The translations under genes were made by a program, and so were the position numbers. The notes beneath the pieces were generated by a model. The model had not been told where the DNA came from. It saw only the letters and a list, made by a program, of their open reading frames with translations, and made no database searches. This document shows, in pieces, positions 13,428 to 64,000 of a stretch of 64,000 nt of DNA (its first letter is position 1; each line of letters opens with the position of its first letter). The stretch spans positions 24,486 through 88,485 of the forward strand of contig JAUYOV010000001.1 of NCBI GenBank assembly GCA_030697795.1, in the 5' to 3' direction. Origin of the DNA: a bacterium. Its GTDB lineage: Bacteria > Patescibacteriota > Minisyncoccia > JACQLN01.

Positions 13428-13501
13428 TGCGGGATCGTCTAATGGTAGGACACCTCCCTTTGAAGGAGGGTATCTTGGTTCGAATCCAGGTCCCGCAGCC
13501 A
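13428..13501 (+). tRNA. tRNA-Gln (anticodon UUG)
   Basis: Cloverleaf folded by eye: U1-A72 acceptor TGCGGGA/TCCCGCA, anticodon loop CTTTGAA, T-arm CTTGG-TTCGAAT-CCAGG, discriminator G, encoded CCA. Confidence 0.8.
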
Positions 13502-16849: not shown

Positions 16850-17452
16850 ATGAAAAGAGTTTTTATTATTCACGGCTACGATGCCACGCCCGAAGACAAT
16901 TGGCTCCCTTGGCTTAAAAAAGAATTGGAAGCTAAAGGATTTGATATTGCGGTGCCCCAGATGCCCGAAGCCGATAACCCAACCTTGGAGAAATGGCTTT
17001 CGCATATTCAACAACTTATCGGCGAGTGCGATGAAAACACTTTTTTGGTCGGCCATAGTTTAGGCACTATAACTATTTTAAGATTTTTAGAAGCTTTGCC
17101 CGAAAACCAAAAAGTTGGCGGAGTTGTTTTGGTAGGCGGTTTTTCTGAATCTTTAAACTTTAAGCCCTTAAAAACATTTACCGAAAAACCGCTTGATTAC
17201 GAAAAAATAAAAAGATCAATAATAACTGACCAAATTAGCACGAGCTTGCGATCGCAAGCTCGTGCTAAAGAAAGAATAGTAGCTATACATTCTACTGATG
17301 ACCCCAGCGTTCCTTTTAGATTCTCCGAAATTATTCGCGACAAGCTTAGCGCGGAACTTATAACTCTGCATGGACTCGGCCATATAAATTGGAAGAGTAA
17401 TTGTCTTGAACTACCACAAGCCTTGGTTGCTATACTCAAAATGAATGAATAA
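16850..17452 (+). CDS. RBBP9/YdeN-like alpha/beta serine hydrolase carrying an in-frame palindromic insertion
   Basis: IIHGYDATPEDNW...GHSLG nucleophile elbow ...HG.GH; a 34-bp perfect palindrome (17235..17268) encodes an extra loop. Confidence 0.65.
   Translation: MKRVFIIHGYDATPEDNWLPWLKKELEAKGFDIAVPQMPEADNPTLEKWLSHIQQLIGECDENTFLVGHSLGTITILRFLEALPENQKVGGVVLVGGFSESLNFKPLKTFTEKPLDYEKIKRSIITDQISTSLRSQARAKERIVAIHSTDDPSVPFRFSEIIRDKLSAELITLHGLGHINWKSNCLELPQALVAILKMNE
17235..17268. repeat. perfect palindrome centred on CGATCG, intragenic and in-frame (copy 1)
   Basis: ttagcacgagcttgcgatcgcaagctcgtgctaa; near-identical copy at 63476..63507; related palindrome at 19481..19516. Confidence 0.9.
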
Positions 17453-51200: not shown

Positions 51201-52801
51201 GTGGAAAACCATTTTAGATAAGCCGCGGTATTGTAGCTAATACTAGCCGAGCTGGCATAACCGCCATTGGGGTTATTAGATATCTGCAAAGTGGCAGTTG
51301 GAGCTGGCGGTTGTGAAACATTAACAGTAACGGTATCTGTTGGACTAGTACCGCCCGTGCCAGAGCAAGAAATAGAGTATGTTCTACCAGAAGTTAAGTT
51401 TCCGCTTGATTGAGAACCCGAAGTTCCCGTCCAACCGCTGGGTGAAACAGAACAAGCCGAAGCATTGCCAGAAGACCAAGATATAGTAGCCGCAGTATTA
51501 TAAGCAATTGTTATAGAAGCATCCGAATTATTGGCTTTAACATCGGCGGTTGGTGTTAGAGCTGTTATAACTAAATTTACAGTAGCACTAGTACCGTTTG
51601 GAGAACCGGTAACCGTTATCGGAAAAGTTCCTGCGGGAGTATTTGACGTTGTAGAAATCGTCATACTTATTGAACAGCTAATATTCGGAGCGCAGGGATT
51701 AGGACTAAACGAAGCATTTGCTTGGCTGGGCAAACCGCTAACAGATAACGTAATAGGTTGAGTAGTTCCTCCAGTTTTTGTTGTTGTTACCGCAAATATA
51801 CTCGTGTTTCCTTTCAATATACTTATGTTGCCATCACTCCCCCTTGATACAGAAACCGTATAGGTAAAGGGTATTACTATATTTACAGTTAAACTAGCTG
51901 ATCCAGAAGTTGTGCCACTAGAATTTGAACAAGACATGGTATATGTTGTGCCAGAGCTTGGAGAAACAGTTGTGGCACCGAATGTATTTGGCTGAACCGA
52001 ACCAACGTTGGTAACATTACATCTAGAAGCACCCGAAGACGACCAGCTTAATGTTGCCGACGAACCTTGTGTGATTGTTGATGGACTAACAGAAATAGAA
52101 ACTGTTGGTGGTGCTGGCGAACGCGTAGCTGTGCAAGAAGCATTAGAGCCTCCGTTTGAACCAGAACAACTCCAATTTGTAGAACCACCTTGCGATGGGA
52201 ACGATGGATTAGATGGACTCGCCGAACCAGAACTACAAAAACTTCCGGAATATCCACCAGCATTATATGCATAATTGGTTGCATTGCTTCCACAAGAGCC
52301 ATTTACTGGGCAAGCTTGCGTGTTACAAGAAACAGTTTGTGTGGATGGACCGACACAATAATTCGTACCACCGCAAGAAGCCGTGCCTTGGCAAGTTCTA
52401 GACTGTGTTTTGGTTCCACCGCCGCAAGATTGCGTACAGCTACTAGTATCGGTCCAGCCACTCCAAGTAGCATTTGTTGGCGAACAACTTGGTGGTGGAG
52501 GTGGAGGTGCTGGATTACAAGATCCCCCGGAACAACCATAAGAACAAGTTTGGATATATCTGGTTGAACAATTACGCGCTCTATACCAGCGTTGACTGCC
52601 CGAACAATAATACCCCGATGAACAAACTGCGGCTAACTGACTATAGCTAGAATCGGAATCCGAAGTATCACTTATTTGAGCATCTACTTGGCTAGAAAAA
52701 AGTATAAAAGCCGAAACCATAACAGCCACAGTAAAAATTAAATAAGGGGCTAACTTAATAAGTTTAATATTTTTTAAATTGGCTTTAGAAAAATTTAGCA
52801 T
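48236..52801 (-). CDS. giant (1521 aa) secreted/cell-surface repeat protein with Cys-rich N-terminal region, many Ser/Thr/Gly-rich beta-sandwich-like repeats and a C-terminal PKD-like domain
   Basis: N-terminal signal/TM; Cys-dense region (residues ~60-230); repeated Y.(L/M).C.G.GG...VTVNV modules; WNWDFSEAAG...RVTDSDG PKD-like signature near the C-terminus. Confidence 0.65.
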   Translation of the reverse strand: MLNFSKANLKNIKLIKLAPYLIFTVAVMVSAFILFSSQVDAQISDTSDSDSSYSQLAAVCSSGYYCSGSQRWYRARNCSTRYIQTCSYGCSGGSCNPAPPPPPPSCSPTNATWSGWTDTSSCTQSCGGGTKTQSRTCQGTASCGGTNYCVGPSTQTVSCNTQACPVNGSCGSNATNYAYNAGGYSGSFCSSGSASPSNPSFPSQGGSTNWSCSGSNGGSNASCTATRSPAPPTVSISVSPSTITQGSSATLSWSSSGASRCNVTNVGSVQPNTFGATTVSPSSGTTYTMSCSNSSGTTSGSASLTVNIVIPFTYTVSVSRGSDGNISILKGNTSIFAVTTTKTGGTTQPITLSVSGLPSQANASFSPNPCAPNISCSISMTISTTSNTPAGTFPITVTGSPNGTSATVNLVITALTPTADVKANNSDASITIAYNTAATISWSSGNASACSVSPSGWTGTSGSQSSGNLTSGRTYSISCSGTGGTSPTDTVTVNVSQPPAPTATLQISNNPNGGYASSASISYNTAAYLKWFSTNAGSCSVSPGGWSGTSNTYGQSTGSLTQSQTYTLNCTGAGGTTSAPSSVTVNVAAPSLNVNFSVTPTSGSSPLNTTFSSSVSGQAIGTINYNYWWNCGYNGTSIAGIEVFCGTLPPVPPGNCASNLSGYRCAGVNTNPQSMAHQYACASGTCNYNAKVIVERGSASAVQAIIPVSVSLPGLSVSCAPGKLKTTKGERVIWTSSVTGGGGFGTYTYSWGGTAPLAGQTSALGDTTYTTAGTKTGSLTVTSSSQTRTVNCSSSVDVRTPGIKVLPPLSTIRIDNTQQLVSEYYPYGCNSSGVCDTSGSADVSNSASWSSTNSAVASINNTSQKGLATGEGTNSQTSASATIYANYTDQYGNLISASTSNGTTASVTVTTRAAPVCSPTSSTGSTGQNITFSSDNSGNPALGYSWSVTGGSPATGTGTSFITKFNSAGTYSVVLKNGSLLDACSVVVSSAYVTITDPITLTPNPNNQAVPVNGVDISATITSNVNSSSNFTFYCNRSDAGTNVITGYAAKHDGVPAGTLSKTAVDACNYTTPGTYTAKVIVERGGAVAERRYAFTVLPALSVDIKADSSDGPISIESGTSATLSWRTTNAVTCSASGGTGPNWSGSKPVAESVPYSQSTGVLSVPGEFKFTITCTSSDGRTASNDVYITVNPSLSITSFTVSPAGKETPGSGNNMSVSISSNITGVSNNYTFYCNKSGPDSDTVVTGGWTHKKDGESSMNYDPPAWPCHYSSAGNYTAKVIVERGGISRAAHVDIVVLPNVAPTVNAFSPSAPSNYCVAPFGWTLSWNFSDAGGDTQYAYQAVITDQGTGGVVKDTGQVVSSSGSYNIPLATLDFNKTYDWRVTVWESDPARLSAQANGSSFTTIKHAAPALSFSMLPLRASKDEPITFTDTTTVSGGATKTAWNWDFSEAAGATVIGPTNASTASASFSTPGSKNIKLRVTDSDGLVCEKGSNENNPADNLPDISIGRSLPSFKEILPR

Positions 52802-52806
52802 TAAAA

Positions 52807-53229
52807 TTATTTAATTTTTTCTATATTGGCCGCGTAAAGCATGCCTATAGATTTTTGAGCATCTATAAAGTTTATTCTAACCTTGGTATCCTTTTTTAAA
52901 ATAGAATCTTTTTTGCCATCCCACATAGTTTCGGGAAAGGTAGCTACAGTATATTCTTTAGCATCACTGCCTAGCAAAACAAAAGTACTGGCTTTTATAT
53001 CTATAGAACTAATAACCCCCTCAACTTCGTTTATAGTTTGATCTATTAATTTAACCTTGCTATTTTTTGCGCCAGACCCAGAATCACTGCCAGAAAAAAT
53101 AAAATAAAAAGCGGCGCCAATTAAAACAACTGCGCCCATAGCCAGCATAATTTTTTCTTTTGATTTCCCAGTAGCAGAATCATAAGGATCTATTACTGGC
53201 CCTTTTTGTGAATCGTAATCCATAAACAA
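52807..53229 (-). CDS. membrane-anchored hypothetical protein (TTG or internal ATG start)
   Basis: 140 aa, one TM; preceded by conserved leader element copy C. Confidence 0.35.
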   Translation of the reverse strand: MFMDYDSQKGPVIDPYDSATGKSKEKIMLAMGAVVLIGAAFYFIFSGSDSGSGAKNSKVKLIDQTINEVEGVISSIDIKASTFVLLGSDAKEYTVATFPETMWDGKKDSILKKDTKVRINFIDAQKSIGMLYAANIEKIK

Positions 53230-53325
53230 TATACTAATCTACAAATTGATACGAATTATACTAATGGCTTCACGAATATTTGTAACTTATTCGTAGCATT
53301 CGCATACATTCGTATATTGGCATAA
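53230..53325. promoter_or_regulatory. conserved upstream leader element (copy C, diverged)
   Basis: acgaattatactaatggcttcacgaatatt...attcgcatacattcgtatattggcat shares cgaatat/actaat/tatattggc blocks with copies A and B. Confidence 0.4.
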
Positions 53326-54105
53326 TTATCTGATTTCGAAGACCACGCTCACGTTAACCGCAACTTCTTGGCTACCCGACTGGATGTCTGGCACGCCTCC
53401 ACCGCCTATGCCCGCGCCTATACCATAGGCTTTTTCATAAAATATTGGCGGCTGGCCGTTGTAAGATTCGGAAAACGTAGCCACCCTGCCCAAACGCACG
53501 CCCGCAAGTTTAGCCATTTCTTTGGCTTTAATTTTGGCTTTATCAAACGCCATCTTTCTGGCTTCAGCTTTAAATTTTTCGGGCTCATCCACAAAAAAAT
53601 CTATACCTTGAACTTGGTTGGCGCCCCGAGCCACTGTGCCCGTTACTATCTCGCCTACTTTTTTTAAATCGCGCACTTTAATTTCGGCCGATTGCGAAGC
53701 CGAAAAACCTGCGGGAACTTGCCGGCCATTTACATAATCGTATCTGGGGTAAAGGTTATAATATGTAGTTTTAATATCTTTAGCTTCCACGCCCAAGCCT
53801 TTTACATAATCTATAACCTTATTCATGTTTTCGGTATTATTCTTTTGAACTGCATCGGCGGTTTTGCCATCGGTCACCACGCTTATACTTATTTTAGCAG
53901 TATCGGGCGTAACTGTAACTTCGCCCTCGGCATTAACAGTTATGGTTTTAATATCTTGGGCTATGGGGCTAACCCAACCGAGCCTAGCTAATAAATCCCA
54001 GAAACTATTTAAGGCAACTATTAAAAGCAAAACTGTTAATATTCCAGCGGCATATTCTGTTATCCGATTCTCGCGCAAAAAAAGCTGTTTGATTTTATTT
54101 AGCAT
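53326..54105 (-). CDS. SIMPL-domain (DUF541, BP26/OMP28-like) protein
   Basis: N-terminal TM then ...ITVNAEGEVTVTPDTAKISISV... and C-terminal ...QEVAVNVSVVFEI typical of SIMPL; start set to the internal Met. Confidence 0.6.
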   Translation of the reverse strand: MLNKIKQLFLRENRITEYAAGILTVLLLIVALNSFWDLLARLGWVSPIAQDIKTITVNAEGEVTVTPDTAKISISVVTDGKTADAVQKNNTENMNKVIDYVKGLGVEAKDIKTTYYNLYPRYDYVNGRQVPAGFSASQSAEIKVRDLKKVGEIVTGTVARGANQVQGIDFFVDEPEKFKAEARKMAFDKAKIKAKEMAKLAGVRLGRVATFSESYNGQPPIFYEKAYGIGAGIGGGGVPDIQSGSQEVAVNVSVVFEIR

Positions 54106-54239
54106 TGGCTTAAATCCTAAATCCGAAGCACGAAATACGAAACAATATCTAAATTCCAAATTATAAAAATAAACCGTTTAAAAAATTTGGATTTTGAATA
54201 TTAAAACTTGTTTAGAATTTCGATATTCGGATTTCGAAT

Positions 54240-54671
54240 TTGTGCTATTATTATAACAATATGTTTAGACTTTTACTATACACAGCCTTAATAGGCGGGG
54301 GCACATACCTAGCGGCAACTATTTTGCCAGATACGTACAAAGAAACTATTTTAAAAAAAACCGGCTTGGGCAACATCCAAGGCGAAAGTTTTGCTTTGTT
54401 TAATCCTGTGGGCGAACGCGCCAAACTTATAAACGACTTAAAACAAAATATATCGGCTCTGGAAAATTATGCCAAAGGCGACGCGGCTATTGCGCCCGCC
54501 ATTGAAGAATCCAAAGAGTTATTGGCAGAATTAGAAAAATTAAATCCAAAATCTAGCGTAACCAGCAGTGTTGTTGGAAAAATATTGGGAGTTACGCCTC
54601 CTGCCGAAACTGCTAGCGTCGCCAACACAGCTGAATTAACTGCCGAACAAAAAGCCAAAATCTGCAGGTAA
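54240..54671 (+). CDS. membrane-anchored hypothetical protein
   Basis: likely true start at the MFRLLLYTALIGGG Met (54261); terminator ggaccgc..gcggtcc + T-run at 54688..54716. Confidence 0.35.
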   Translation: MCYYYNNMFRLLLYTALIGGGTYLAATILPDTYKETILKKTGLGNIQGESFALFNPVGERAKLINDLKQNISALENYAKGDAAIAPAIEESKELLAELEKLNPKSSVTSSVVGKILGVTPPAETASVANTAELTAEQKAKICR

Positions 54672-54819
54672 TTTATCGGAAGGACCGCCCTTCCCAAAAA
54701 AAGCGGTCCTTTTTTTATAATTTGATCGGATACCGAGTGTTTAATCAGATTCTTGTCTTATTCTACTCGTCTCTGTTACACTGCCACCAGTTCTTAAACT
54801 TACCTAAAAGGAGGTTTTG

Positions 54820-55052
54820 TTATGATGTGCTTTCGCGAAGGCTGTCATCACGGTATAGATGAACCGGGCGGAGTGGAATTGATCGTTGGGGTTGGCACCA
54901 GAGGCAGTATCGGCAGTTCAAGAGCCAGAATTTCGGCAAAGTTCTGTTCTGTCACCTGCACTTCCATTTTTCTGGTACAATATCCTTCTCAATCGGATAT
55001 TCTGCGAAAAGTGGGAGAGCTTTGCGAGAAGCAAACTCTCGCCTCCTCCTGA
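54820..55052 (+). CDS. small Cys/His-containing ORF in a GC-rich islet
   Basis: AAAGGAGG RBS; MMCFREGCHHG...; ~55% GC; flanked by an imperfect inverted repeat (54718..54752 / 55058..55088). Confidence 0.25.
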
Positions 55053-55188
55053 ACCAACTTGATCGAACACTCGGTGTTTGATCAGGAGAATTTAAACAAA
55101 AAATAAAGCGGGTATGCATTATGCATCCCGCTATTTTTATTAAAATATTCTCATATTCTTGAGAATGTGAGAATATTTTTGTGCTTGG

Positions 55189-56850
55189 TTAAACTGGCCG
55201 GCGCTTGTTTCTTAATTCTTCCCGATAAGCGGGAATTTTATTTACGGCGTCGGCCAAGAACTTAGAAAAAATATCCCAACGAACTACCGCCACTGTCAGC
55301 CTTCGCTCGCCCCGATAAATTTTACCTTCCAACGTTTGCCCCAAAGCTATCAGACGGCGAGATTCTGCCTTAAGCCAGGCGTCGTCTGCTGGGTGAGCAA
55401 TCAGACACAGGTAGGGCGAGTAAGGATCTTCGTTTTTTGCTTGGATAATAAGAGCTAAACCGCCAGCCAGACCATACTCTTTATTGTTTTTAACTGACTT
55501 TTTTTCAGAGCTGTTTCTGAATTCAACCCAAGCCCCCACGGGCAGAATATTGAAAGCATTAGCGATAGCCGCCAGCGCGTAAGCCATCATCGGCAATTGC
55601 TTCTGTCTGTGAAATACTAAATTATAATCGGACGGCATTTCCAGCACGGCTATTAACCGATCCAGAGCCAGCAATTCCGGTCGGCCGATAACCACCTCGT
55701 TTATAAAACTTTCGGTGAGCGAGAGTATCAGCGCCGAAGCCATAAATTTGTTGGCTAGGCGTTCCACAAAAGTCTGCGCGTCAACACCACTCTCTGCTGG
55801 TCTAGCTTTAGCGCTAGTATGCGGATCAAGCTCATCCAAAATTCGGCGTTCCTGACCAAGAACATCCCGCTGGTGAAAAGAATGAGTAATTATTTCCTCG
55901 GTTGATTCTGATTGAACGATGCACTCCGATCTATATACAAACCGGCTCGCCCATATATAGGAGTGGTGAAGAATAAGATCTTCCAGCCCTTCTGGCAAAT
56001 CACAGCCATGGGTGCGCAATAGCCTGACCACTTGAGCACTTCTGGCTTCGTGCCCAGCCAAATCTTGCCCGCCCCACATACCACTGTTTTCCAGCAGGCC
56101 CGCCAAAAAGAAAATCTCCAGATCGGTGGTATCAAACGGAATAAGGTCGCTGTAGCCAGAAACTAAATTCCCCCATTCCACATTTTTTCTAAACCAGTAA
56201 GCCACGCGAATTGCGGTGATGGCCAGCTTCAAAGCCTCCCTAGCTTCTTGTTCATTTGGCGCAGGCATGCCTTCCAGTTCACCCAAAATTCTGCCTTCGC
56301 CGTTTAAAAGATCATAAGCCGCTTGAAATACTGCCACGCGAAGATCCTTCACGGCTTCACCCAAAGATGCTACTTCTTTGATCAGCTCCGAATCTGGCGG
56401 ATTTTTTGAAGACAATGCCGCACTATTTATCCCTTTTAAACTTAACAGCACTGCCCGGCAACGCTCGTAGATTTCAATGGCAGAACGGTAGATTGTTTCA
56501 GCGCGGGCTTTGGCGCTTTCTGCTGTTTGAGCGCGGGCGCGTTCCAGTTCTTGCGTCAGTTTCCCCAGCGCCACAGCGTCAAAAGCAACTTTATGTGGCC
56601 ACATCACCACATCCAGATTGGCAATTCCTTTGCCACCGAATAAAATAATTTTATTCGGATCTAACAGTACGCCGGCTTCTATTTTGTTGGGACCGCCCAC
56701 CCGTCCGGGGAAACTTACCGATTTAGCCGTATAAATATCGTAATCGGCATCGCGTAAACCAATTTCAATTTCGTTTAAACTAGCGCGTCCAATTTGGGCA
56801 ATCTTATTATCCTCCAAGGCCATTTCCACAAAACCATTTTTGAATTTCAT
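55189..56850 (-). CDS. large hypothetical protein (553 aa) of atypical high GC, no recognised domain
   Basis: ~50-55% GC against a ~35% background; own terminator-like hairpin at 55108..55135 and palindrome aatattctca...tgagaatatt at 55140..55173. Confidence 0.45.
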   Translation of the reverse strand: MKFKNGFVEMALEDNKIAQIGRASLNEIEIGLRDADYDIYTAKSVSFPGRVGGPNKIEAGVLLDPNKIILFGGKGIANLDVVMWPHKVAFDAVALGKLTQELERARAQTAESAKARAETIYRSAIEIYERCRAVLLSLKGINSAALSSKNPPDSELIKEVASLGEAVKDLRVAVFQAAYDLLNGEGRILGELEGMPAPNEQEAREALKLAITAIRVAYWFRKNVEWGNLVSGYSDLIPFDTTDLEIFFLAGLLENSGMWGGQDLAGHEARSAQVVRLLRTHGCDLPEGLEDLILHHSYIWASRFVYRSECIVQSESTEEIITHSFHQRDVLGQERRILDELDPHTSAKARPAESGVDAQTFVERLANKFMASALILSLTESFINEVVIGRPELLALDRLIAVLEMPSDYNLVFHRQKQLPMMAYALAAIANAFNILPVGAWVEFRNSSEKKSVKNNKEYGLAGGLALIIQAKNEDPYSPYLCLIAHPADDAWLKAESRRLIALGQTLEGKIYRGERRLTVAVVRWDIFSKFLADAVNKIPAYREELRNKRRPV

Positions 56851-57013
56851 ACCAAACCTCCTTTTTTATATAAAAGATCTAGCCGTTATCGGTTAGCTAA
56901 GCTTAGCAACATAGCCCAAGAATTAGCAATCCTGCATCTTCTTTGGTTAAAAAGGCGCGGGATAAAAATACCGAACGCTTGTTTGAGCGTTCGGTTTGTT
57001 AAATGTGATTGTT

Positions 57014-57298
57014 TTATATAAACTTAGTTTTTCTGGTTAGGTGATTCCCCTTTTTATCAAAAAATCTATAATCCCAAAAATATTCGCTTTCAGCGCCTGT
57101 AACTCTTAAAACAACAACAGAAACATATCCTCCGTTAAGGTGGCTGATTTTAATATTGGCTTTTCCAGAAAAAGCTCTTGCGGAAAAATCAATATTGAAT
57201 TCGCCTGTTTCGGTTTTCTTGCCTAAAAAAAATTGACACGGCACAGCCATAGCTAACTCTAAAGCTGTCTTACGGATTTTACTTACAACCGAGTCCAT
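57014..57298 (-). CDS. hypothetical small protein
   Basis: 94-aa ORF followed by an intrinsic terminator (ataccgaacgc...gcgttcggt + T-run on the minus strand) at 56960..56995. Confidence 0.3.
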   Translation of the reverse strand: MDSVVSKIRKTALELAMAVPCQFFLGKKTETGEFNIDFSARAFSGKANIKISHLNGGYVSVVVLRVTGAESEYFWDYRFFDKKGNHLTRKTKFI

Positions 57299-57506
57299 AA
57301 TATACGCCTTTTGATAGAGTTTATTTGTATATAAAGATCTAACTATATATAAACACTATAACCCTATTTACGTCAACCGAGCTGGGGTCAAGCCCGTTGA
57401 ATATCGCCAAGATTACACAAACACCGATCAACAATTTATGCTATCGCCTAAAAGAGTGACCATACTAACAAAGACTACCCTTATTAGTTGTTAGAGTTGT
57501 TAGCTT

Positions 57507-57529
57507 TACTGCTCCGCGGGCAGGATTCG
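57507..57529 (-). repeat. displaced partial copy of the tRNA-Asn 3' end (T-arm/acceptor), direct repeat with 57825..57847
   Basis: tgctccgcgggcaggattcgaac vs tRNA tgctccggtggtaggattcgaac (20/23). Confidence 0.6.
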
Positions 57530-57542
57530 AACTCAATTCCCG

Positions 57543-57815
57543 CTAGGAGCGGGATGAGCCATCCGATAAAAATTCTTTTAACAATCTTATTCGTTCTTTA
57601 TAGCCAAATAGACTCTTGAGAAACTTTTCTCTTCTCATCGCTTCGGATCGTGACTTATATATTTCACTTTTGATGAATAATAATGGTCGCCTGTTTTTCG
57701 TAGATTTAACCTTGCCACCAAAATGCTCTTTGAGTCTAATGTCGATTTTACTTGTTTGCCCAATGTAAAGTTTTTTATCTTTTTGGCTATAAAGAATATA
57801 TACAAAATAGTTCAT
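57543..57815 (-). CDS. GIY-YIG nuclease-domain protein
   Basis: MNYFVYILYSQKDKKLYIGQTSKIDIRLKEH...NRRPLLFIKSEIYKSRSEAMRREKFLK is a GIY-YIG core; start set to the internal Met because the track ORF runs into the tRNA. Confidence 0.6.
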   Translation of the reverse strand: MNYFVYILYSQKDKKLYIGQTSKIDIRLKEHFGGKVKSTKNRRPLLFIKSEIYKSRSEAMRREKFLKSLFGYKERIRLLKEFLSDGSSRS

Positions 57816-57826
57816 AAAATACTTTG

Positions 57827-57898
57827 CTCCGGTGGTAGGATTCGAACCTACAACCATCGCCTTAACAGGGCGCCGCTCTACCGTTGAGCTACACCGGA
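57827..57898 (-). tRNA. tRNA-Asn (anticodon GUU), CCA not encoded
   Basis: Reverse complement folds: acceptor TCCGGTG/CACCGGA, D-arm GCTC-AACGGTA-GAGC, anticodon loop CTGTTAA, T-arm GTAGG-TTCGAAT-CCTAC, discriminator G. Confidence 0.8.
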
Positions 57899-57936
57899 GC
57901 GAAGTATTTTATACAAAGAATTTTTATCGAAATTGG

Positions 57937-57998
57937 CCTGCAACCATCGCCTTAACAGGGCGCCACACTACCTCCGCCAGCTGGCGGAGAGCTACCGC
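57937..57998 (-). pseudogene. partial tRNA-Asn-like copy (D-arm and anticodon-arm sequence, no T-arm) with an inserted perfect hairpin
   Basis: 24-nt exact match caaccatcgccttaacagggcgcc to tRNA-Asn 57851..57874; upstream gtagctc D-arm remnant interrupted by the hairpin tccgccagctggcggag. Confidence 0.5.
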
Positions 57999-58168
57999 GG
58001 AATATATTTTTTAAGAACAATCATAATATAACCTGTAAATATATAACCTGTAAATCCCTAGTTATCAAGCTTAAGTTTGCGCTGTGTTAAACTCGACCGA
58101 TAGAAAAACCAATCCCAAAAACGCAGCTCGAGTGGTGGGCTGTTTTTGTTTTAGAAGCGTGGGGTAGA

Positions 58169-58315
58169 CTACATCGAAATAACTCCCGAAATAACGATCA
58201 GCGCGGCCCAAACATAGTTGAGCCAGCTGGGCCATTTTAGCTTGGTCGTGAGTGCCATCACCACGCCCAGCACAACCGCTCCCCACCCTGTAAATAATCC
58301 TGCGAGTAAATCCAT
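58169..58315 (-). CDS. possible 48-aa two-TM small membrane protein (GC-rich)
   Basis: AAGGAG ~13 nt before the ATG; MDLLAGLFTGWGAVVLGVVMALTTKLKWPSWLNYVWAALIVISGVISM; preferred over the overlapping track ORF 58071..58286, which has no RBS and a low-complexity product. Confidence 0.25.
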   Translation of the reverse strand: MDLLAGLFTGWGAVVLGVVMALTTKLKWPSWLNYVWAALIVISGVISM

Positions 58316-58384
58316 ATAGAAATTATACTCCTTTTAATTTACAATTAAATAGTCGTCTGTTGATAACTCACAAACTTTTTAGCT

Positions 58385-59092
58385 ATGCCCGAATTTATTC
58401 AAGAACTAGTCTCTCCCATGCTTAGTGGCGTGCTTACCATGTTATTTTTGGTGTGGTTTGTTTTTTATCGCGCCACGCGGAAATTGTTTTTAACTTTTTG
58501 GATTGGACTTGTTTTATGGGTTTGGCTGGTTACAGTTTTTTTGCTGGCGCAACAAGACAAATTCTTTTTAAAACTTTCGCTCTCATCATTGCCTAACATT
58601 GGCTTACTGTTTGTGCCGATTATAGTAGGCCTAAATTTTTTGGCAAAATCCAGCACTTTCCGAAAAATAGTTGATAACATTTCTCAACCTTGGCTGATCG
58701 GAGTGCAGATGACCCGAATGATGGGCGTAATGTTTTTGGCGCTTTATGCCAGAGGTTTAATGCCGGCGGAATTTGCCATTCCGGCTGGCGTAGGCGATGT
58801 AATAGTGGGCACCACAGCGCCCCTGGTGGCCGTTATGCTGTTTTTAAATCGGCCCGGTGCCAAAAAAATAGCTATTGTTTGGAACATAGTAGGTTTCGCC
58901 GAATTGGTTCTGGCCATAGGTCTTGGTTTTTTAACTTCGCCTACACCTTACCAAACACTAGCGCTTGATAGACCTAATAACTTTCTTTTTGAGTTTCCGC
59001 TGGCCTTAATACCCACTTTCGCCGTGCCTTTATCGTTACTGCTTCATATCTTTTCTCTCCGTGTCTTACTTAAACGGAAAACCTTGTCTTGA
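58385..59092 (+). CDS. hypothetical polytopic membrane protein
   Basis: 235 aa, ~6 hydrophobic segments. Confidence 0.4.
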   Translation: MPEFIQELVSPMLSGVLTMLFLVWFVFYRATRKLFLTFWIGLVLWVWLVTVFLLAQQDKFFLKLSLSSLPNIGLLFVPIIVGLNFLAKSSTFRKIVDNISQPWLIGVQMTRMMGVMFLALYARGLMPAEFAIPAGVGDVIVGTTAPLVAVMLFLNRPGAKKIAIVWNIVGFAELVLAIGLGFLTSPTPYQTLALDRPNNFLFEFPLALIPTFAVPLSLLLHIFSLRVLLKRKTLS

Positions 59093-59109
59093 TCTAACCT
59101 GCGGCGTTT

Positions 59110-60225
59110 TTGGGCAGTTATATAGATATGAAGGTCTGCTATTTAAACCACGATCTTAAAGACTCCACCGGCGCCGGGCGGTTTTGTTTATCTTTAATTA
59201 AAGAGATAAAAAACATTCTGACGGAAAGCCAAATTACGGTTTTAACTTCCGAAGCCAGCGATCACAATTTAGAAAAACCCATACTCAAGAGCGGTGTGAT
59301 GGGCGCGGTTTTTTCTTTGCCAAAAATAAGGCGTGTTTTCAAAAAGTGCGATGTTATACATGCTCTAGACGGTTGGCCCTATGGAGTTTTGGCTATGCTA
59401 GCGGGCTTTGGCTTAAAAAAGAAAATTATTATAACCGCCATTGGTAGCGGAGCTGTAGCGCCACTATATAGTTTTTGGCGCCGAGTGATTATTAGCTGGG
59501 CTTATCGCCGAGCCACCAAACTTACCGCTATTAGCCATAATACAAAAAAAGAAATATTAAAAATTCTGCCTGATCTGAAAATTACTGTCATCAATCACGG
59601 AGTTGATTTCAATAAATTTTCCTACTTCGCTAAAGCTTCGCAGGACAAGCAAGTTACAAAATACAAACCATATATCCTTAGCGTCGGCACGCTCAAAAAA
59701 AGAAAAGGATACGAATATTCAATCGCGGCTTTTGCCAAGATAGCTCCGGAATTCCTCGATCTTAAATATGTTATTTTTGGTGCGGATAATTCTAAAGAGA
59801 AAAAAGAGTATGCCAGATTAAATCAAATTGCGGAGGAATTGGGAGTAAAGAATCAAGTTATATTTTTGTCCAAAAAGATTTCGGATGCCGAACTAACTGC
59901 TTTATACAAAAACGCCGAACTTTTTATTTTATTGCCCCAAGACGCGGCTAAAGATATAGAAGGTTTTGGTTTAGTTTTTTTGGAAGCCGCCGCTTGTGGT
60001 CTGCCTGTAGTTTCGGCTAAAGACACTAGCGCCGAAGATGCGGTTTTAGATGGTAAAAATGGAATTTTGGTATCGGCCCAAGATACGGCCGCCGCGGCCG
60101 AAGCTATAAAACAAATATTATCCGACAAAAAGCTTAGTGAATCGTTTAAACAAGCCTCGCTAGAATTTGCCCAAAAAATGAGCTGGCACAAAACCGCCAC
60201 CGCTTACGCCGAGCTTTATATTTAA
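59110..60225 (+). CDS. GT4-family (group 1) glycosyltransferase
   Basis: C-terminal GFGLVFLEAAACGLPVVSAKDTSAEDAVLDGKNG matches the GT4 EX7E region. Confidence 0.8.
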   Translation: MGSYIDMKVCYLNHDLKDSTGAGRFCLSLIKEIKNILTESQITVLTSEASDHNLEKPILKSGVMGAVFSLPKIRRVFKKCDVIHALDGWPYGVLAMLAGFGLKKKIIITAIGSGAVAPLYSFWRRVIISWAYRRATKLTAISHNTKKEILKILPDLKITVINHGVDFNKFSYFAKASQDKQVTKYKPYILSVGTLKKRKGYEYSIAAFAKIAPEFLDLKYVIFGADNSKEKKEYARLNQIAEELGVKNQVIFLSKKISDAELTALYKNAELFILLPQDAAKDIEGFGLVFLEAAACGLPVVSAKDTSAEDAVLDGKNGILVSAQDTAAAAEAIKQILSDKKLSESFKQASLEFAQKMSWHKTATAYAELYI

Positions 60226-60285
60226 TTTATATCGTTTTGACAGTCCCCCTTTAACCCTATATACTTACAGTAAAACAGTAATACC

Positions 60286-60750
60286 ATGCCTATAGTTAAA
60301 ACCCAAAAAAAGGATGAGACGCTATCTCTTTCTAAGATCAGCACTAAACATCAGGTGACTATTCCCCAAGAAGTGTTTGAAGAATTACAACTAAAAATTG
60401 GTGACTTGGTAGAAATAGTAGCCGAAAGAGGTAAAGCCACCCTCGTTCCCAAGAGGGTGGTTTCCCGTCCACTGGCATCTAAACTCTCGGCCCGGGAACA
60501 AAAAACTCTCCAGTCTGCCCAAAAAAAGATTGAAGCCATCAATAAAAACATCCTTACCTCAAAAGGGCTGACGCCAGCTGAAGCGGATGTAGCAGTCAAG
60601 ATTGGACTGATTAACCATGATCAAAAATACTGGTGGCTGGAGGAATGGCAAGAAGGTGAGCGCGAGGTAGAGCGCGATATCAAGGCAGGCCGGGTCTCTG
60701 GACCGTTTGAGACCGCAGAGAATCTGCTCGCGCACCTCCACCAGCTATGA
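60286..60750 (+). CDS. AbrB/MazE/SpoVT-type swapped-hairpin DNA-binding antitoxin with long C-terminal extension
   Basis: ISTKHQVTIPQEVFEELQLKIGDLVEI is the AbrB/MazE fold signature; overlaps the downstream toxin by 4 nt. Confidence 0.55.
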   Translation: MPIVKTQKKDETLSLSKISTKHQVTIPQEVFEELQLKIGDLVEIVAERGKATLVPKRVVSRPLASKLSAREQKTLQSAQKKIEAINKNILTSKGLTPAEADVAVKIGLINHDQKYWWLEEWQEGEREVERDIKAGRVSGPFETAENLLAHLHQL

Positions 60751-61004
60751 GAACCGAAACCACCCCGCGCTTTGACCGGGAGTACACCCGGTTGCCCCAG
60801 CACATCCAAGCGCGAGTTGATAAGCAATTTGCGCTCCTTCTTTCTGATCCCCGCCACCCTTCACTGCGAATACGAAAAATGAAAGGCTGGAGAGATATTT
60901 GGGAAGGTCATGTGACCCAAAACTGTTGCTTCACTTTTAACATTGTTGGTGATATCTATATATTTAGACGCATAGGCACACATAATATTTATAGGAAACC
61001 CTAA
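60747..61004 (+). CDS. RelE/ParE-family toxin
   Basis: 85 aa; ...LRIRKMKGWRDIWEGHVTQNCCFTFNIVGDIYIFRRIGTHNIY resembles the ParE/RelE C-terminal core. Confidence 0.55.
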   Translation: MRTETTPRFDREYTRLPQHIQARVDKQFALLLSDPRHPSLRIRKMKGWRDIWEGHVTQNCCFTFNIVGDIYIFRRIGTHNIYRKP

Positions 61005-61043
61005 AGACAACTATCTTTCTTTATAATATAATAGAATAAAAAA

Positions 61044-61424
61044 ATGGCTTTAACAAAAATAGTAATCGGCGTATTAATAGGCGGGGTTTTGGCTTTGGTG
61101 GGCTATGGCATTTACGATTATCGCCAGCCGGGTAAACTAGACGGCTTGGCCCAATGTATAAAAGATAGTGGCGCCATTTTTTACGGCGCTTTCTGGTGTC
61201 CGCACTGTCAAAATCAAAAAAAGATGTTTGGTAAATCAGATAGGCTTTTACCATATGTAGAATGTTCCTTACCGAGCGGACAAGGTCAAAATCAAACTTG
61301 CGCAGATAAAAAAATAGAAGGCTACCCTACTTGGGAGTTTAAAGATAGCACTCGGGCCACTAAAGTATTTTCTTTAGGAGAACTAGCCGAGAAAACTGCT
61401 TGCCCGCTACCCGAACCAAAATAG
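61044..61424 (+). CDS. membrane-anchored thioredoxin-fold protein (DsbA-like, WCPHC active site)
   Basis: N-terminal TM; FWCPHCQNQKK CxxC motif. Confidence 0.6.
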   Translation: MALTKIVIGVLIGGVLALVGYGIYDYRQPGKLDGLAQCIKDSGAIFYGAFWCPHCQNQKKMFGKSDRLLPYVECSLPSGQGQNQTCADKKIEGYPTWEFKDSTRATKVFSLGELAEKTACPLPEPK

Positions 61425-61427
61425 CCA

Positions 61428-61940
61428 ATGATAGATTCTGTTAACTTTATTCTTTCTGTTTTTGCTGTTATTGCTCAAATAGCCATAGTGTTTTTAATTG
61501 TGGCCAAAATAACTAAAAACCAATCTATTTTAAAATTTGTTAACGAAAAAGTTTTAATATTATCTTTGGTAATCGTTTTGGGCGGAATATTTGGCAGTTT
61601 ATTTTATTCGGAAATTGCCGGTTACGCGCCTTGCTCTTTATGTTGGTGGCAAAGAGTTTTTTTGTATCCGCAAGCTATTATTTTGGGTTTGGCTTTAATA
61701 AAAAAGGATTTGGCTGTAACTCGTTATATTAAAACCCTGTCTTTATTTGGATTAGTTATCTCGGCCTATCAATCGCTTTTACAAATGGGTTTGGTGCCAT
61801 CTATAATATGTGGCACTAGTTCTATAAGTTGCGCTCAAAGATATTTTATAAATTTTGGTTATATAACTTTACCTTTAATGGGCTTTACCGCTTTTTTGCT
61901 TTTAACTATCTTAAACTGGAACCCCGCCCTTGAAGACTAA
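61428..61940 (+). CDS. disulfide bond formation protein B (DsbB/BdbC family)
   Basis: 4 TM; CSLCWWQR first Cys pair and a second Cys pair (CGTSSISC) in the second loop, as in BdbC. Confidence 0.65.
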   Translation: MIDSVNFILSVFAVIAQIAIVFLIVAKITKNQSILKFVNEKVLILSLVIVLGGIFGSLFYSEIAGYAPCSLCWWQRVFLYPQAIILGLALIKKDLAVTRYIKTLSLFGLVISAYQSLLQMGLVPSIICGTSSISCAQRYFINFGYITLPLMGFTAFLLLTILNWNPALED

Positions 61941-62183
61941 TATTCTGACTTGCGATTATAAAAAGTTTGTTTAATTTTCAAAATATTTTTCCGTAACACT
62001 TTGAACAATTACCATTTTTAGTCTTCTCTTCAAGGGCGGGGTTGACACGCTTTTGCCTATAAGTTAGACTACTCCAGCTAAGGTGCATAAGGCATCCCAA
62101 GCCCCAAACCCAGGTAAGCGCCTAAACGGCCAAAAACCTAAGGTTTCGGGAGTTCTTTCACTCTTATTAGGAGGTTTATCCTA

Positions 62184-62441
62184 ATGGATCAGCAGACCCA
62201 GACCCGCCAGAGTCTCCTCGTAGTGGAGTTCAACGAGATCAACCAGCCCGGCTGCTACATCACCCCCAAGGGCGACCTGGTGCGCGTGGTTCCGGAAGGC
62301 ATCAAGGCCCAGCACTCCCCGCTCATCACCGTGGAGTCGAAGGACGACACGCGGGTGACCAAGATCTCCGACAATGCCTTCGAGCCCATCGGCAAGGCCA
62401 GGCTCCTGGCCGCCAACGCCGATCTCGCGGTCAACTTCTAG
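62184..62441 (+). CDS. hypothetical 85-aa protein of very high GC (~62%) with own promoter-like region, GGAGG RBS and terminator
   Basis: MDQQTQTRQSLLVVEFNEINQPGCY...; codons dominated by G/C third positions, unlike the rest of the window; TTGACA-like box at 62041; terminator ccccgttccaa..ttggaacgggg + T-run at 62479..62515. Confidence 0.45.
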   Translation: MDQQTQTRQSLLVVEFNEINQPGCYITPKGDLVRVVPEGIKAQHSPLITVESKDDTRVTKISDNAFEPIGKARLLAANADLAVNF

Positions 62442-62549
62442 AACCTGACCTGACGGTCTCGTCTGGAAACAAGCTTCATCCCCGTTCCAACTAAATTGGA
62501 ACGGGGATTTTTATTTTGGGTTAAAAAGTTGCCATCCATAATAGAAAAT

Positions 62550-62572
62550 CTATCGAAGTGGAACTTCGATAG
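62550..62572. repeat. 23-bp hairpin ctatcgaagt-gga-acttcgatag (family also at 28631..28653 and, degenerate, 16311..16331)
   Basis: Perfect 10-bp stem; each copy sits just after a plus-strand stop codon. Confidence 0.6.
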
Positions 62573-62637
62573 AAACAAACCCAGCACCTTTTGTTTAAAA
62601 AGGTGCTGGGTCTTTTAATAATTACTAACTACTACGT

Positions 62638-63045
62638 TTACCAGCCATAGTTCGGCAAAAACTTTTGCAGAATGCTGGAACTGAATGGTGCTGGAGCTAC
62701 CGATCCGCCAGTTGGAGCCGGAGCAAATCCTCCCGAAGATCCTGCTTGCCCGCCAGAGCCTTGCGGCGGCTGGGAGCTTGGCGAGGGGCTACCGCCACCT
62801 TGTTGGAGCACCCCCTCTATGTTCTGTCTGATATTTTCACGGATATTCTGCCTGACATTCTGCTGAACGCCCTGCTGTATATTCTGCTTGATACCCTGCT
62901 GAATTTGCCTCTGCTGTTGGATATTTTGTTTAACATTCTGTTTTGTGTTTTGCCTCGCCGTTTGCACTGCCTTTCTAGCCGCATTTATTTTAATTTGATA
63001 TTCCGAACGAATAGCTCGAATTTTTTCTTCCATTTCCCTTTGCAA
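62638..63045 (-). CDS. Gln/Asn-rich low-complexity protein
   Basis: 135 aa; QNIQQ/QNVRQNIRENIRQNIE repeats, Gly/Ser-rich tail. Confidence 0.35.
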   Translation of the reverse strand: MQREMEEKIRAIRSEYQIKINAARKAVQTARQNTKQNVKQNIQQQRQIQQGIKQNIQQGVQQNVRQNIRENIRQNIEGVLQQGGGSPSPSSQPPQGSGGQAGSSGGFAPAPTGGSVAPAPFSSSILQKFLPNYGW

Positions 63046-63062
63046 ACGAGAAACCTCGTTAC

Positions 63063-63269
63063 CTACATTGCCACCAGCCTGCCCGGAACTACTTGCCCCG
63101 AACCTTGTTGAGGTGTCCCGACCGAAGTGGGGAGGGTAGAGGGAACCGTCCCTATCGTAGTTGTATCTGTTGGAGTTGTGGCTGTGGTGCTATCTTGCGC
63201 CATCGCGTCAAACACGGCTAAAGCCAAAGAAAATATAAAAACCGAAAACATTAAAAAAACTTTTTTCAT
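63063..63269 (-). CDS. small secreted Thr-rich protein (signal peptide)
   Basis: MKKVFLMFSVFIFSLALAVFDAMAQ then a T/P-rich segment; may be the N-terminal part of one gene with 62638..63045. Confidence 0.3.
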   Translation of the reverse strand: MKKVFLMFSVFIFSLALAVFDAMAQDSTTATTPTDTTTIGTVPSTLPTSVGTPQQGSGQVVPGRLVAM

Positions 63270-63475
63270 ATATTTTTTAAATCAATAAATTTTTAATATA
63301 TATCAACATTGTATCATTTATCAGTCAAAGACTTTATCCACAATCTAATCTTGGCACATTGCCCACACTAATAATTGTAATAAAAAGAACGATAGATATG
63401 GAAATTATTTTACGGGGATTATTGAACAGATAATTATCCCGCATCTTTTTAATCAAAAAGGTGCGGGACTTTACC

Positions 63476-63507
63476 TAGCACGAGCTTGCGATCGCAAGCT
63501 CGTGCTA
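63476..63507. repeat. 32-bp perfect palindrome centred on CGATCG, intergenic copy
   Basis: tagcacgagcttgcgatcgcaagctcgtgcta, identical core to 17235..17268; lies just downstream of a minus-strand gene, next to the hairpin cccgcatcttttt..aaaaaggtgcggg. Confidence 0.9.
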
Positions 63508-63535
63508 TTTTTAACTTCAATAGATAAACCACCAG

Positions 63536-63994
63536 TTAAAATCCAGCTGGCGGGCCAGTAGGTATTCCTGCGGGCGGCCCAAATTGAGTTCCGGCTGGTG
63601 GACCAAACTGGGTACTGGCAGGCGGGCCAAAAGACCCGCCCGAGGGCGCGCCGCTCTTTTCCATTTGTTCCTTAACTTTTTGCTGTATAATATTTTGAAT
63701 TTGTTCCTGTGACGGCGGACCGTTCTTCATCATTTCCGGTGTAACTTCTACACCTTTAGGCAACATTTTTTGTATATCTTCGGCAGATGGAGGACCCTTT
63801 TTTAACATTTCTGGCGAAACATCAACGCCTTTTGGAATCATCTTTTGTATATCTTCAGCCGAGGGCGGACCACTCTGACCCTCAAACCCTGCGGGGGCAC
63901 CGCCTTCAAAACCGGCCGGCGGTTTCATTAACTTAGAAAAGCATTGCCCCATCGCTTCACCCACAGATTTATCTGGAATACCGCCCGATTTCAT
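63536..63994 (-). CDS. Pro/Gly-rich tandem-repeat protein
   Basis: Repeats GPPSAEDIQKM(I/L)PKGV(D/E)V(S/T)PEM(L/M)KKGPP and FGPPAGTQ; start 6 nt from the window edge. Confidence 0.35.
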   Translation of the reverse strand: MKSGGIPDKSVGEAMGQCFSKLMKPPAGFEGGAPAGFEGQSGPPSAEDIQKMIPKGVDVSPEMLKKGPPSAEDIQKMLPKGVEVTPEMMKNGPPSQEQIQNIIQQKVKEQMEKSGAPSGGSFGPPASTQFGPPAGTQFGPPAGIPTGPPAGF

Positions 63995-64000
63995 TTTTTC

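Follow-up and report, generated by a model that had tools for sequence, protein, structure and literature searches.

GIY-YIG nuclease genes are typical passengers of the group I introns of bacterial tRNA genes, which are self-splicing and inserted in the anticodon loop. Integrative elements that target tRNA genes are kilobases long, use an integrase and an attachment (att) core, and carry only the 3' segment of the gene. SegB of phage T4, like the Seg family in general, has a DNA-binding region beside its catalytic domain. This GIY-YIG homing endonuclease is encoded among clustered tRNA genes. It prefers a 27-bp site that contains GGTTCRANTCC and is located in a tRNA-Asn gene, and it cuts nine other sites in tRNA genes (PMC2330249). 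SegB drives tandem amplification of tRNA genes together with segB, and its phage homologues are enriched beside tRNAs of many isotypes (PMC13096335). The locus described here lies in a 64,000-nucleotide (nt) stretch of contig JAUYOV010000001.1, the whole of which is called the window below. It is a tRNA-Asn gene parted by 405 bp that contain a second, complete tRNA-Asn gene and the gene of a 90-amino-acid (aa) GIY-YIG nuclease. The whole is probably best explained as one 405-bp cassette of homing type that entered the resident tRNA-Asn gene and brought a replacement tRNA with it.

ARAGORN found two tRNAs in the whole window, one of them a tRNA-Asn(GTT) on the minus strand that scores 71 bits against the Rfam tRNA model, in agreement with a preliminary description of this DNA. 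The locus is read on the minus strand, and L-numbers denote loci from the genomes and metagenomes compared. Its parts, in reading order, are as follows.

58025-58054, minus strand: sigma-70-like promoter match TTTACA-18-TATATT (consensus match), just upstream of A
58001-57937, minus strand: A, displaced 5' remnant of the resident tRNA-Asn, covering positions 1-53 (65 nt)
57972-57989, D-loop position of fragment A: perfect 18-nt palindrome CTCCGCCAGCTGGCGGAG
57936-57899, minus strand: spacer and 5' leader, left part of the insert (38 nt; conserved spacer CCAATTTCGATAAAAATTCTTT..., then the leader, which pairs with the trailer)
57898-57826 (3' edge 57826/7), minus strand: B, intact tRNA-Asn(GTT) inside the insert (ARAGORN, Rfam)
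57825-57816, minus strand: 3' trailer of tRNA B (10 nt), which pairs with the 5' leader and ends at the GIY-YIG ATG
57815-57543, minus strand: GIY-YIG nuclease gene (90 aa, single domain, NCBI MDP3764075.1)
57553-57539, minus strand: hairpin H, CCCGCT-cct-AGCGGG, overlapping the nuclease stop codon
57538-57532, minus strand: (G)AATTGAG, the insert's right end, a conserved sequence of the tRNA-Asn clade
57531-57510, minus strand: D, displaced 3' remnant of the resident tRNA-Asn, from position 54 to its end (TTCGAATCCTGCCCGCGGAGCA)

The insert (57532-57936) separates the 5' T-stem strand of the resident gene from its T-loop, with the junction GG^TTCGAATCC (^ marks the edge of the insert), and holds only the tRNA and the 90-aa open reading frame (ORF). 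The preliminary description had noticed that the last 23 nt of the intact tRNA (GTTCGAATCCTACCACCGGAGCA) recur downstream and that the two copies bracket a single GIY-YIG gene. The repeat is real, with 3 mismatches (20/23 identical), and no second match to it arose in 100 dinucleotide-preserving shuffles of the window (0/100), but it lies at 57510-57532 and not at 57507-57529; the bracketed ORF is indeed the one at 57543-57815. The pseudo-copy reported upstream does have an exact 24-nt match to the anticodon arm (57941-57964) and a perfect palindrome, but runs over 57937-58001 instead of 57937-57998.

Fragments A and D fit each other. A supplies the 5' strands of the acceptor (TCCGCGG) and of the T stem (GCAGG); D reads from the T-loop (TTCGAAT) through the 3' strands of the T stem (CCTGC) and of the acceptor (CCGCGGA) to the discriminator G and CA. 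Together they pair at 7/7 positions in the acceptor and 5/5 in the T stem. Tracts of B fit less well: the acceptor strands pair at only 5/7 positions between A and the 3' strand of B, and again at 5/7 between the 5' strand of B and D. Each of the three positions at which D differs from B (in CCGCGGA and CCTGC) is compensated in A (TCCGCGG, GCAGG). When A is joined to D and the palindrome is exchanged for the AAC of B, ARAGORN calls a tRNA-Asn. Because the mutual pairing is complete and the mismatches are compensated, A and D are taken to be the halves of one older tRNA-Asn gene. B is a different, complete tRNA-Asn allele carried within the insert (acceptor TCCGGTG/CACCGGA, T stem GTAGG/CCTAC). 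From the anatomy alone, a single nested insertion that carried its own tRNA is very likely. Fragment A has decayed, with two substitutions in the D stem and a D-loop in which the 16-nt core of the palindrome (TCCGCCAGCTGGCGGA) stands in for 3 nt. The resident tRNA-Asn is probably single-copy, and its disruption would be tolerated because the cassette's own tRNA supplies the essential function.

These pairings bear on two other accounts of the locus. The preliminary description had proposed an insertion into the tRNA-Asn gene with a tiny GIY-YIG cargo, the downstream 23-mer being the displaced old 3' end, and all of this stands. It had also supposed that the tRNA was regenerated by a crossover at its 3' end, as in the integrase-driven or Campbell-type integration of a small circle carrying a tRNA 3' end, and that the upstream pseudo-copy came from an independent rearrangement at a recombination hotspot. 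The direct repeat of the tRNA 3' end around the GIY-YIG gene fits such an event, as do L061 and L062, where only the form tRNA-nuclease-D is seen. There is no integrase in or near the locus, however; the 5' strand of B (TCCGGTG) pairs with the displaced 3' end (CCGCGGA) at only 5/7 positions, so that B is not a chimera; fragment A complements the displaced end exactly; and conservation across loci marks the spacer that separates A from B as part of the insert. Integration of this kind is thus judged very unlikely, and the hotspot is unnecessary because one insertion explains both fragments, A being the other half of the same gene. Equally, the two halves could in principle pair within one transcript from which the 405 bp are removed as an intron, of group I or of the archaeal bulge-helix-bulge type, and the frequency of GIY-YIG genes in group I introns of bacterial tRNA genes counts in its favour. 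A search of 57300-58200 against Rfam with E-values up to 10 returned only the tRNA and matches at chance level, though, with no group I or group II intron among them, and the insert sits in the T-loop and holds a whole tRNA. The D-stem mismatches and the 16-nt palindrome in A would make the joined product defective, and the host is a Parcubacteria-type bacterium, not an archaeon. An intron or split tRNA is extremely improbable.

The host lineage has the allele of the halves. A 235-aa membrane protein encoded beside the locus (58385-59092) has relatives in Parcubacteria-type metagenome-assembled genomes. The closest relative is L157, in which the flanking 235-aa protein is 88% identical, and the native tRNA-Asn of L157 has the acceptor TCCGCGG and the T stem GCAGG, which is the allele of A and D and not that of B. 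B in turn agrees at 71/73 positions (counted by hand) with the inner tRNA of L062; the nucleases of L062 and of the window are 69% identical. At L157 6889-7120 there is a nested tRNA-Asn with no nuclease gene, all parts of which are of the same allele: outer positions 1-11 are followed by a hairpin-rich spacer of 62 nt, a complete tRNA that has a leader/trailer helix, then 30 nt, and outer positions 21-73. It may be a derivative of the cassette that lacks the nuclease, or a footprint of the cassette.

The same unit is found elsewhere. The nearest homologues of the nuclease (63-74% identity) all adjoin a tRNA-Asn gene, and the full layout of A, spacer, B, nuclease gene, hairpin and D is present in the metagenomic loci L063, L064/L065 and L066, with inserts of 406-419 bp. 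The left junction common to them is ...NNNGG^CC(A/T)...TAAAAA(T/C)T... and the right one is hairpin-(G)AATTGAG^TTCGA; the heptamer precedes TTCGA in L063 and L066, and L064 has TCAGAG. Homology between loci spans the whole unit and ends at the outer tRNA ends, beyond which the flanks are unrelated. The outer alleles differ: the window has TCCGCGG, while L063, L064 and L066 carry TCCGGCG, TCCGGTG and TCCGGAG, and in all four loci the outer 5' half pairs at 7/7 positions with its own D. Since dead halves are not selected to stay complementary, each A/D pair must come from one intact host gene, and different self-complementary outer alleles at the same junction imply that the same cassette entered tRNA-Asn more than once. 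This comparison of sequences argues for repeated site-specific insertion and is the strongest argument for mobility.

Variants of the layout also occur, namely B, nuclease gene and D only in L061/L062, and a 5'-truncated A without D in L155/L156. In the gene order rpoD, bAvd-like, tRNA-Asn the site is empty in L158/L159, and L155/L156 bear the cassette there. As looked for in homing genes, the same insertion site is thus occupied in independent genomes and homologous sites elsewhere are empty, in comparisons that are between species and not within one population. In L155 (2009-2615) and L156, a repeat of about 70 bp (CCGGCTCCTTTATTTGTATAATTATATTTATTGAATAG...) lies upstream of the truncated A and again after the nuclease stop codon; it could stem from duplication of the whole unit in tandem or from insertion into a secondary site. 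The preliminary description had held that an identical arrangement in relatives would indicate a conserved functional unit. It does occur again, yet every locus has its own host tRNA allele and the flanks are unrelated, a pattern that suits a mobile unit better than a conserved host operon.

The encoded protein matches the Pfam family GIY-YIG (PF01541) with 61.8 bits against a cut-off of 22.6 (E 7.5e-17), and no other Pfam domain was found in it apart from a sub-threshold match to T5orf172. By phmmer against the PDB it is most similar to two UPF0213 proteins, 1zg2 (BH0048; E 7.6e-9) and 1ywl (EF2693; E 1.5e-6). An AlphaFold2 model (predicted local distance difference test, pLDDT, 93.5) has the elements E-E-H-E-H-H and matches the three-stranded sheet with helices of the GIY-YIG superfamily; Foldseek ranks 1zg2 first, then the nuclease domains of Slx1, and then I-TevI. 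Among 39 homologues Y6, Y17, G19, H31 and E63 are invariant, and R27 is conserved in at least 90%. By sequence and fold the protein is a minimal stand-alone member of the UPF0213/bacterial Slx1-like GIY-YIG family, whose domains have about 90-100 aa, and is nearer to Slx1 than to the lineage of UvrC and I-TevI; on the evidence of the conserved residues and the model it looks active. Matches to PHROG profiles named 'homing endonuclease' reach only E 1.4e-5, over the catalytic core, and tblastn with the nuclease within the window retrieved only itself. To our knowledge, structures of this family have been solved since 2005 and no function has been assigned to it.

A survey of 143 genome and metagenome loci with 156 homologous ORFs extends the association to other tRNAs. 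Within -400/+200 nt of these ORFs there are 97 tRNAs on the same strand, where 3.3 would be expected from the remainder of these loci, and one on the opposite strand. Twenty-six anticodons are represented, and the nuclease subclades are tRNA-specific. Fragments of the 5' and/or 3' part of a tRNA were found at 44/70 unique ORFs that adjoin an intact tRNA. Where the nuclease gene follows the tRNA (49 ORFs), a 3' fragment stands after the nuclease gene in 25, a 5' fragment is present in 17, and both in 13; where it precedes the tRNA (21 ORFs), a 5' fragment lies upstream of the nuclease gene in 13. The family is patchily distributed over the candidate phyla radiation (CPR), Bacteroidota and others. 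The downstream pseudo-tRNA of Bacteroidota and some other loci has a hairpin, commonly YCCCG...CGGGR, in place of its anticodon arm or interrupting it. Tandem arrays of a GIY-YIG gene plus the 3' part of a pseudo-tRNA, with periods of about 337-470 bp, are found at the following positions and resemble the SegB-driven segmental amplification described for phage T6.

L001 3001-3980: tandem array
L003 3001-4111: tandem array
L011 3001-3642: tandem array
L022 2628-4232: tandem array
L073 2501-3191: tandem array

Other arrangements were seen in single loci or clades. In L030 (1-300) a tRNA-Val 5' fragment that includes a hairpin is present in four tandem copies of 80 bp. In the sister clade L147-L154 (tRNA-Glu, tRNA-Thr) the nuclease gene is upstream of the intact tRNA. 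It lies between 16-17-nt inverted repeats (TCAAAATTTCTGAGATT / AATCTCAGAAATTTTGA) in the Glu loci; in the Thr loci it lies between direct repeats of about 50 bp that include the ATG and is preceded by tRNA positions 1-19 and long hairpins.

Instead, the unit could be an immobile, domesticated host operon: a housekeeping nuclease for repair or RNA processing, driven by tRNA promoters, among tRNA fragments left by local duplications and by recombination between tRNA repeats. UPF0213 proteins are widespread in bacteria and are not known to take part in mobility. The nuclease ORF begins some 10 nt downstream of the tRNA, a helix of processing type encloses it, its orientation is always that of the tRNA, its subclades follow tRNA identity, and its catalytic residues are under constraint. 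For UPF0213 proteins, a fusion with a TrmH-type tRNA methyltransferase has also been noted (PMC1564403). All of this would suit a host gene. It is harder to reconcile with four loci that have identical junctions, four different self-complementary outer alleles and unrelated flanks, with an inner tRNA allele that differs from the native allele of the lineage, with unoccupied and occupied sites in the same gene context, and with the patchy distribution and the tandem arrays. A domesticated operon is therefore considered quite unlikely.

Several non-coding features are conserved in form. The acceptor stem of B is prolonged by a helix between the 5' leader and the 3' trailer; the sequence of this helix is different in each of six loci, 6/11 pairs have compensatory changes, and the fold z-score of the version in the window is -5.2. 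The nuclease ATG stands directly after this 12-bp helix (57899-57914 with 57816-57825), with no evident Shine-Dalgarno sequence, and translation of the nuclease may depend on tRNA processing that frees a nearly leaderless mRNA. A hairpin at the place of H is also present in L062, L063, L064, L066 and L155, with a wholly different stem sequence in each; in other clades the hairpin YCCCG..CGGGR takes the place of the anticodon arm of the pseudo-tRNA. H was considered as an intrinsic terminator and rejected, as no T-run follows it. The spacer CCAATTTCGATAAAAATTCTTT... is conserved in L063, L064, L066 and L155. The promoter match upstream of A is, to judge from its sequence and position, the probable native promoter of tRNA-Asn, from which A, B, the nuclease gene and D may now be transcribed, although promoter-type matches in the region are not above shuffle expectation. 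Taken together, the helix reaching up to the ATG, hairpin H and the promoter match suggest, but do not prove, that the old promoter gives rise to one RNA with B and the nuclease mRNA, which would then be cut at the helix.

In L004, L005 and L013 the displaced tRNA 5' fragments have, at the corresponding place, perfect palindromes comparable to that at 57972-57989. One 20-nt perfect palindrome, CCTGCCTGCCGGCAGGCAGG, is common to five unrelated CPR loci, at the following positions.

L004 2486-2505: palindrome CCTGCCTGCCGGCAGGCAGG
L005 2961-2982: palindrome CCTGCCTGCCGGCAGGCAGG
L013 2633-2652: palindrome CCTGCCTGCCGGCAGGCAGG
L043 2299-2318: palindrome CCTGCCTGCCGGCAGGCAGG
L083 476-499: palindrome CCTGCCTGCCGGCAGGCAGG

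It is 15-19 nt from the GIY-YIG gene in three of the five, and lies in the D-loop region of the displaced tRNA 5' fragment in L004, L013 and, by position, L005 (Asn, Ile and Ser). The palindrome of the window differs from it in sequence but occupies the same D-loop place. A further perfect palindrome of 32-34 nt, (T)TAGCACGAGCTTGCGATCGCAAGCTCGTGCTA(A), is present twice in the window (17235-17268 and 63476-63507, 46 kb apart) and may be a dispersed palindromic repeat of this genome.

Hairpins and palindromes at fixed places raise a different mechanism, in which the Slx1-like nuclease would act on cruciforms or cloverleaves extruded by tRNA genes and by the element's own hairpins (H, the leader/trailer helix and the perfect palindromes), and movement would be of the cut-and-copy kind known from IS200/IS605 and REP/RAYT, not sequence-specific homing. 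The fold is nearer to Slx1 and UPF0213 than to I-TevI and there is no DNA-binding domain; hairpins with covarying stems stand at conserved positions in every clade; CCTGCCTGCCGGCAGGCAGG recurs in unrelated loci close to the nuclease gene; the Glu-clade ORF lies between inverted repeats; and many tRNA isotypes are targeted. On the other side, the junctions of the Asn clade are sequence-precise within the T-arm motif, as with SegB. Neither a target-site duplication nor a terminal inverted repeat shared by all clades was found, and the tRNA halves are more simply explained as homology arms. By eye, the Asn-clade insert has only a weak CAATT match at its ends. We know of no GIY-YIG transposases of the hairpin-directed kind, which also counts against this mechanism. 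It is regarded as unlikely; it nevertheless stays the main rival because of the bare domain, the Slx1-type relatives, the short right arm and the unexplained hairpins and palindromes.

Homing is the mechanism preferred here for the cassette, by analogy with SegB, and its chances of being correct are put at about even. Under homing, the nuclease would break an intact tRNA gene in the universally conserved T-arm or close to it, and the broken ends would find homology in the A and D halves of the donor. Repair would then copy the spacer, tRNA B, the nuclease gene and the hairpin between the arms, with B keeping the cell alive after the resident gene is split. Because the homology arms are themselves tRNA sequence, movement between species that share little else would be possible. 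Alternative registers of pairing could give rise to the forms with only tRNA B, nuclease gene and D, or only A, nuclease gene and tRNA B, and repeated cutting to the tandem arrays.

Several observations weigh against this reading. The inner tRNA B keeps an intact GGTTCGAATCC, so that immunity to self-cleavage is unaccounted for. The right homology arm is about 22-23 nt, which is borderline for RecA-type repair. The 90 aa are wholly catalytic fold plus one C-terminal helix, with no DNA-binding module of the kind present in I-TevI and Seg proteins, and the nuclease domains of Slx1 are structure-specific and need partners. Homing does not require the covarying hairpin H, the leader/trailer helix or the perfect palindromes. 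Synteny with L157 is confined to 58102-59082 and ends about 100 nt outside A, and the tRNA-Asn of L157 is elsewhere. Among the loci compared there was no pair from a single species of which one has the cassette and the other lacks it; an exact-sequence look-up of the window nuclease, made in search of an empty site in the same species, returned no contig, and L160 has no tRNA nearby. Viral contigs contained no relatives of the nuclease, and tblastn against 50,697 phage records gave five weak matches, none annotated, none named SegB and none T4-like.

Extended to the whole family, the reading becomes more tentative. Slx1-like UPF0213 mini-nucleases might be the motors of widespread selfish cassettes that nest in tRNA genes of CPR/Patescibacteria, Bacteroidota and others. 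They would recognise the architecture of the tRNA gene, either as the T-arm motif or as an extruded cloverleaf or cruciform, and the halves would serve as homology arms across species. The damage would be offset by a spare tRNA or its missing part, and the hairpins and palindromes would serve immunity, processing or recognition. Taken jointly, these proposals fall somewhat short of an even chance.

Neither the insert nor the ORFs at 54240-57298 and 58385-59092 contain integrase, recombinase, transposase or defence domains in searches with Pfam, NCBIfam, PADLOC and PHROGs; the glycosyltransferase ORF at 59110-60225 was checked with Pfam only. The GC-rich ORFs at 54718-57298, once suggested as further cargo, lie outside D, the old tRNA 3' end, and are not bounded by a tRNA repeat. 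They match no family in the same four collections, which holds for the ORFs of 553 aa (55189-56850) and 94 aa (57014-57298) next to the locus, and nothing was found that ties them to the cassette. Similar GC values are found elsewhere in 50000-64000. There are no further tRNA repeats in the window, and the tRNA-Gln locus (13428-13501) is without fragments.

The cassette is distinctive in that it nests inside a tRNA gene, carries a replacement tRNA and encodes a minimal Slx1-like nuclease. Mini GIY-YIG cassettes nested in tRNA genes were not found described in the full-text literature searched, including a 2023 meeting report and the 2006 survey of the GIY-YIG superfamily by Dunin-Horkawicz et al. 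(PMC1564403), although most subscription journals were outside the search and this is absence of evidence only. If the reading is correct, the UPF0213/bacterial Slx1-like family of small GIY-YIG proteins would gain a concrete role, and there would be a third way for a nuclease gene to reside in an essential RNA gene: whereas introns splice and integrative islands regenerate the gene end, the cassette would bring a whole replacement gene and keep the halves as homology arms. Cassettes would then swap tRNA alleles horizontally in reduced CPR genomes, and the pseudo-tRNAs and tandem arrays that they leave would confuse annotation. SegB-type targeting of tRNA genes would be extended from phages to cellular chromosomes, and a 90-aa nuclease with specificity for tRNA genes would be of enzymological interest.

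The cassette shares some traits with each of the systems it can be compared with. With group I introns that carry GIY-YIG genes it has in common a nuclease gene inside a tRNA gene whose function in the host is kept; it differs in having no ribozyme, in drawing that function from a spare gene copy, and in its insertion in the T-loop. Integrative elements that target tRNA genes likewise insert in a tRNA gene, keep its function by tRNA sequence borne on the element, and displace the old part as a direct repeat, but the cassette is 0.4 kb long, has no recombinase, carries a whole tRNA and leaves both halves of its target in place. The nuclease resembles the UPF0213/Slx1-like proteins (1zg2, 1ywl; PMC1564403) in size, single-domain architecture, sequence and fold; in the literature searched, no report was found that links these proteins to tRNA genes or to mobility. 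The closest analogue is SegB, a relative in concept and not in sequence, as no specific sequence similarity to SegB or its phage homologues was detected. The junction of the cassette lies in the same T-arm motif, and many isotypes and tandem arrays are involved in both. SegB spreads with adjacent tRNA DNA by the repair of breaks, as the cassette would under the homing model. SegB is phage-borne, whereas the nuclease of the cassette is a bare 90-aa domain of Slx1/UPF0213 type on bacterial chromosomes; and SegB lies between genes, whereas the cassette sits within a tRNA gene, leaves both halves of it, and brings the replacement tRNA along.

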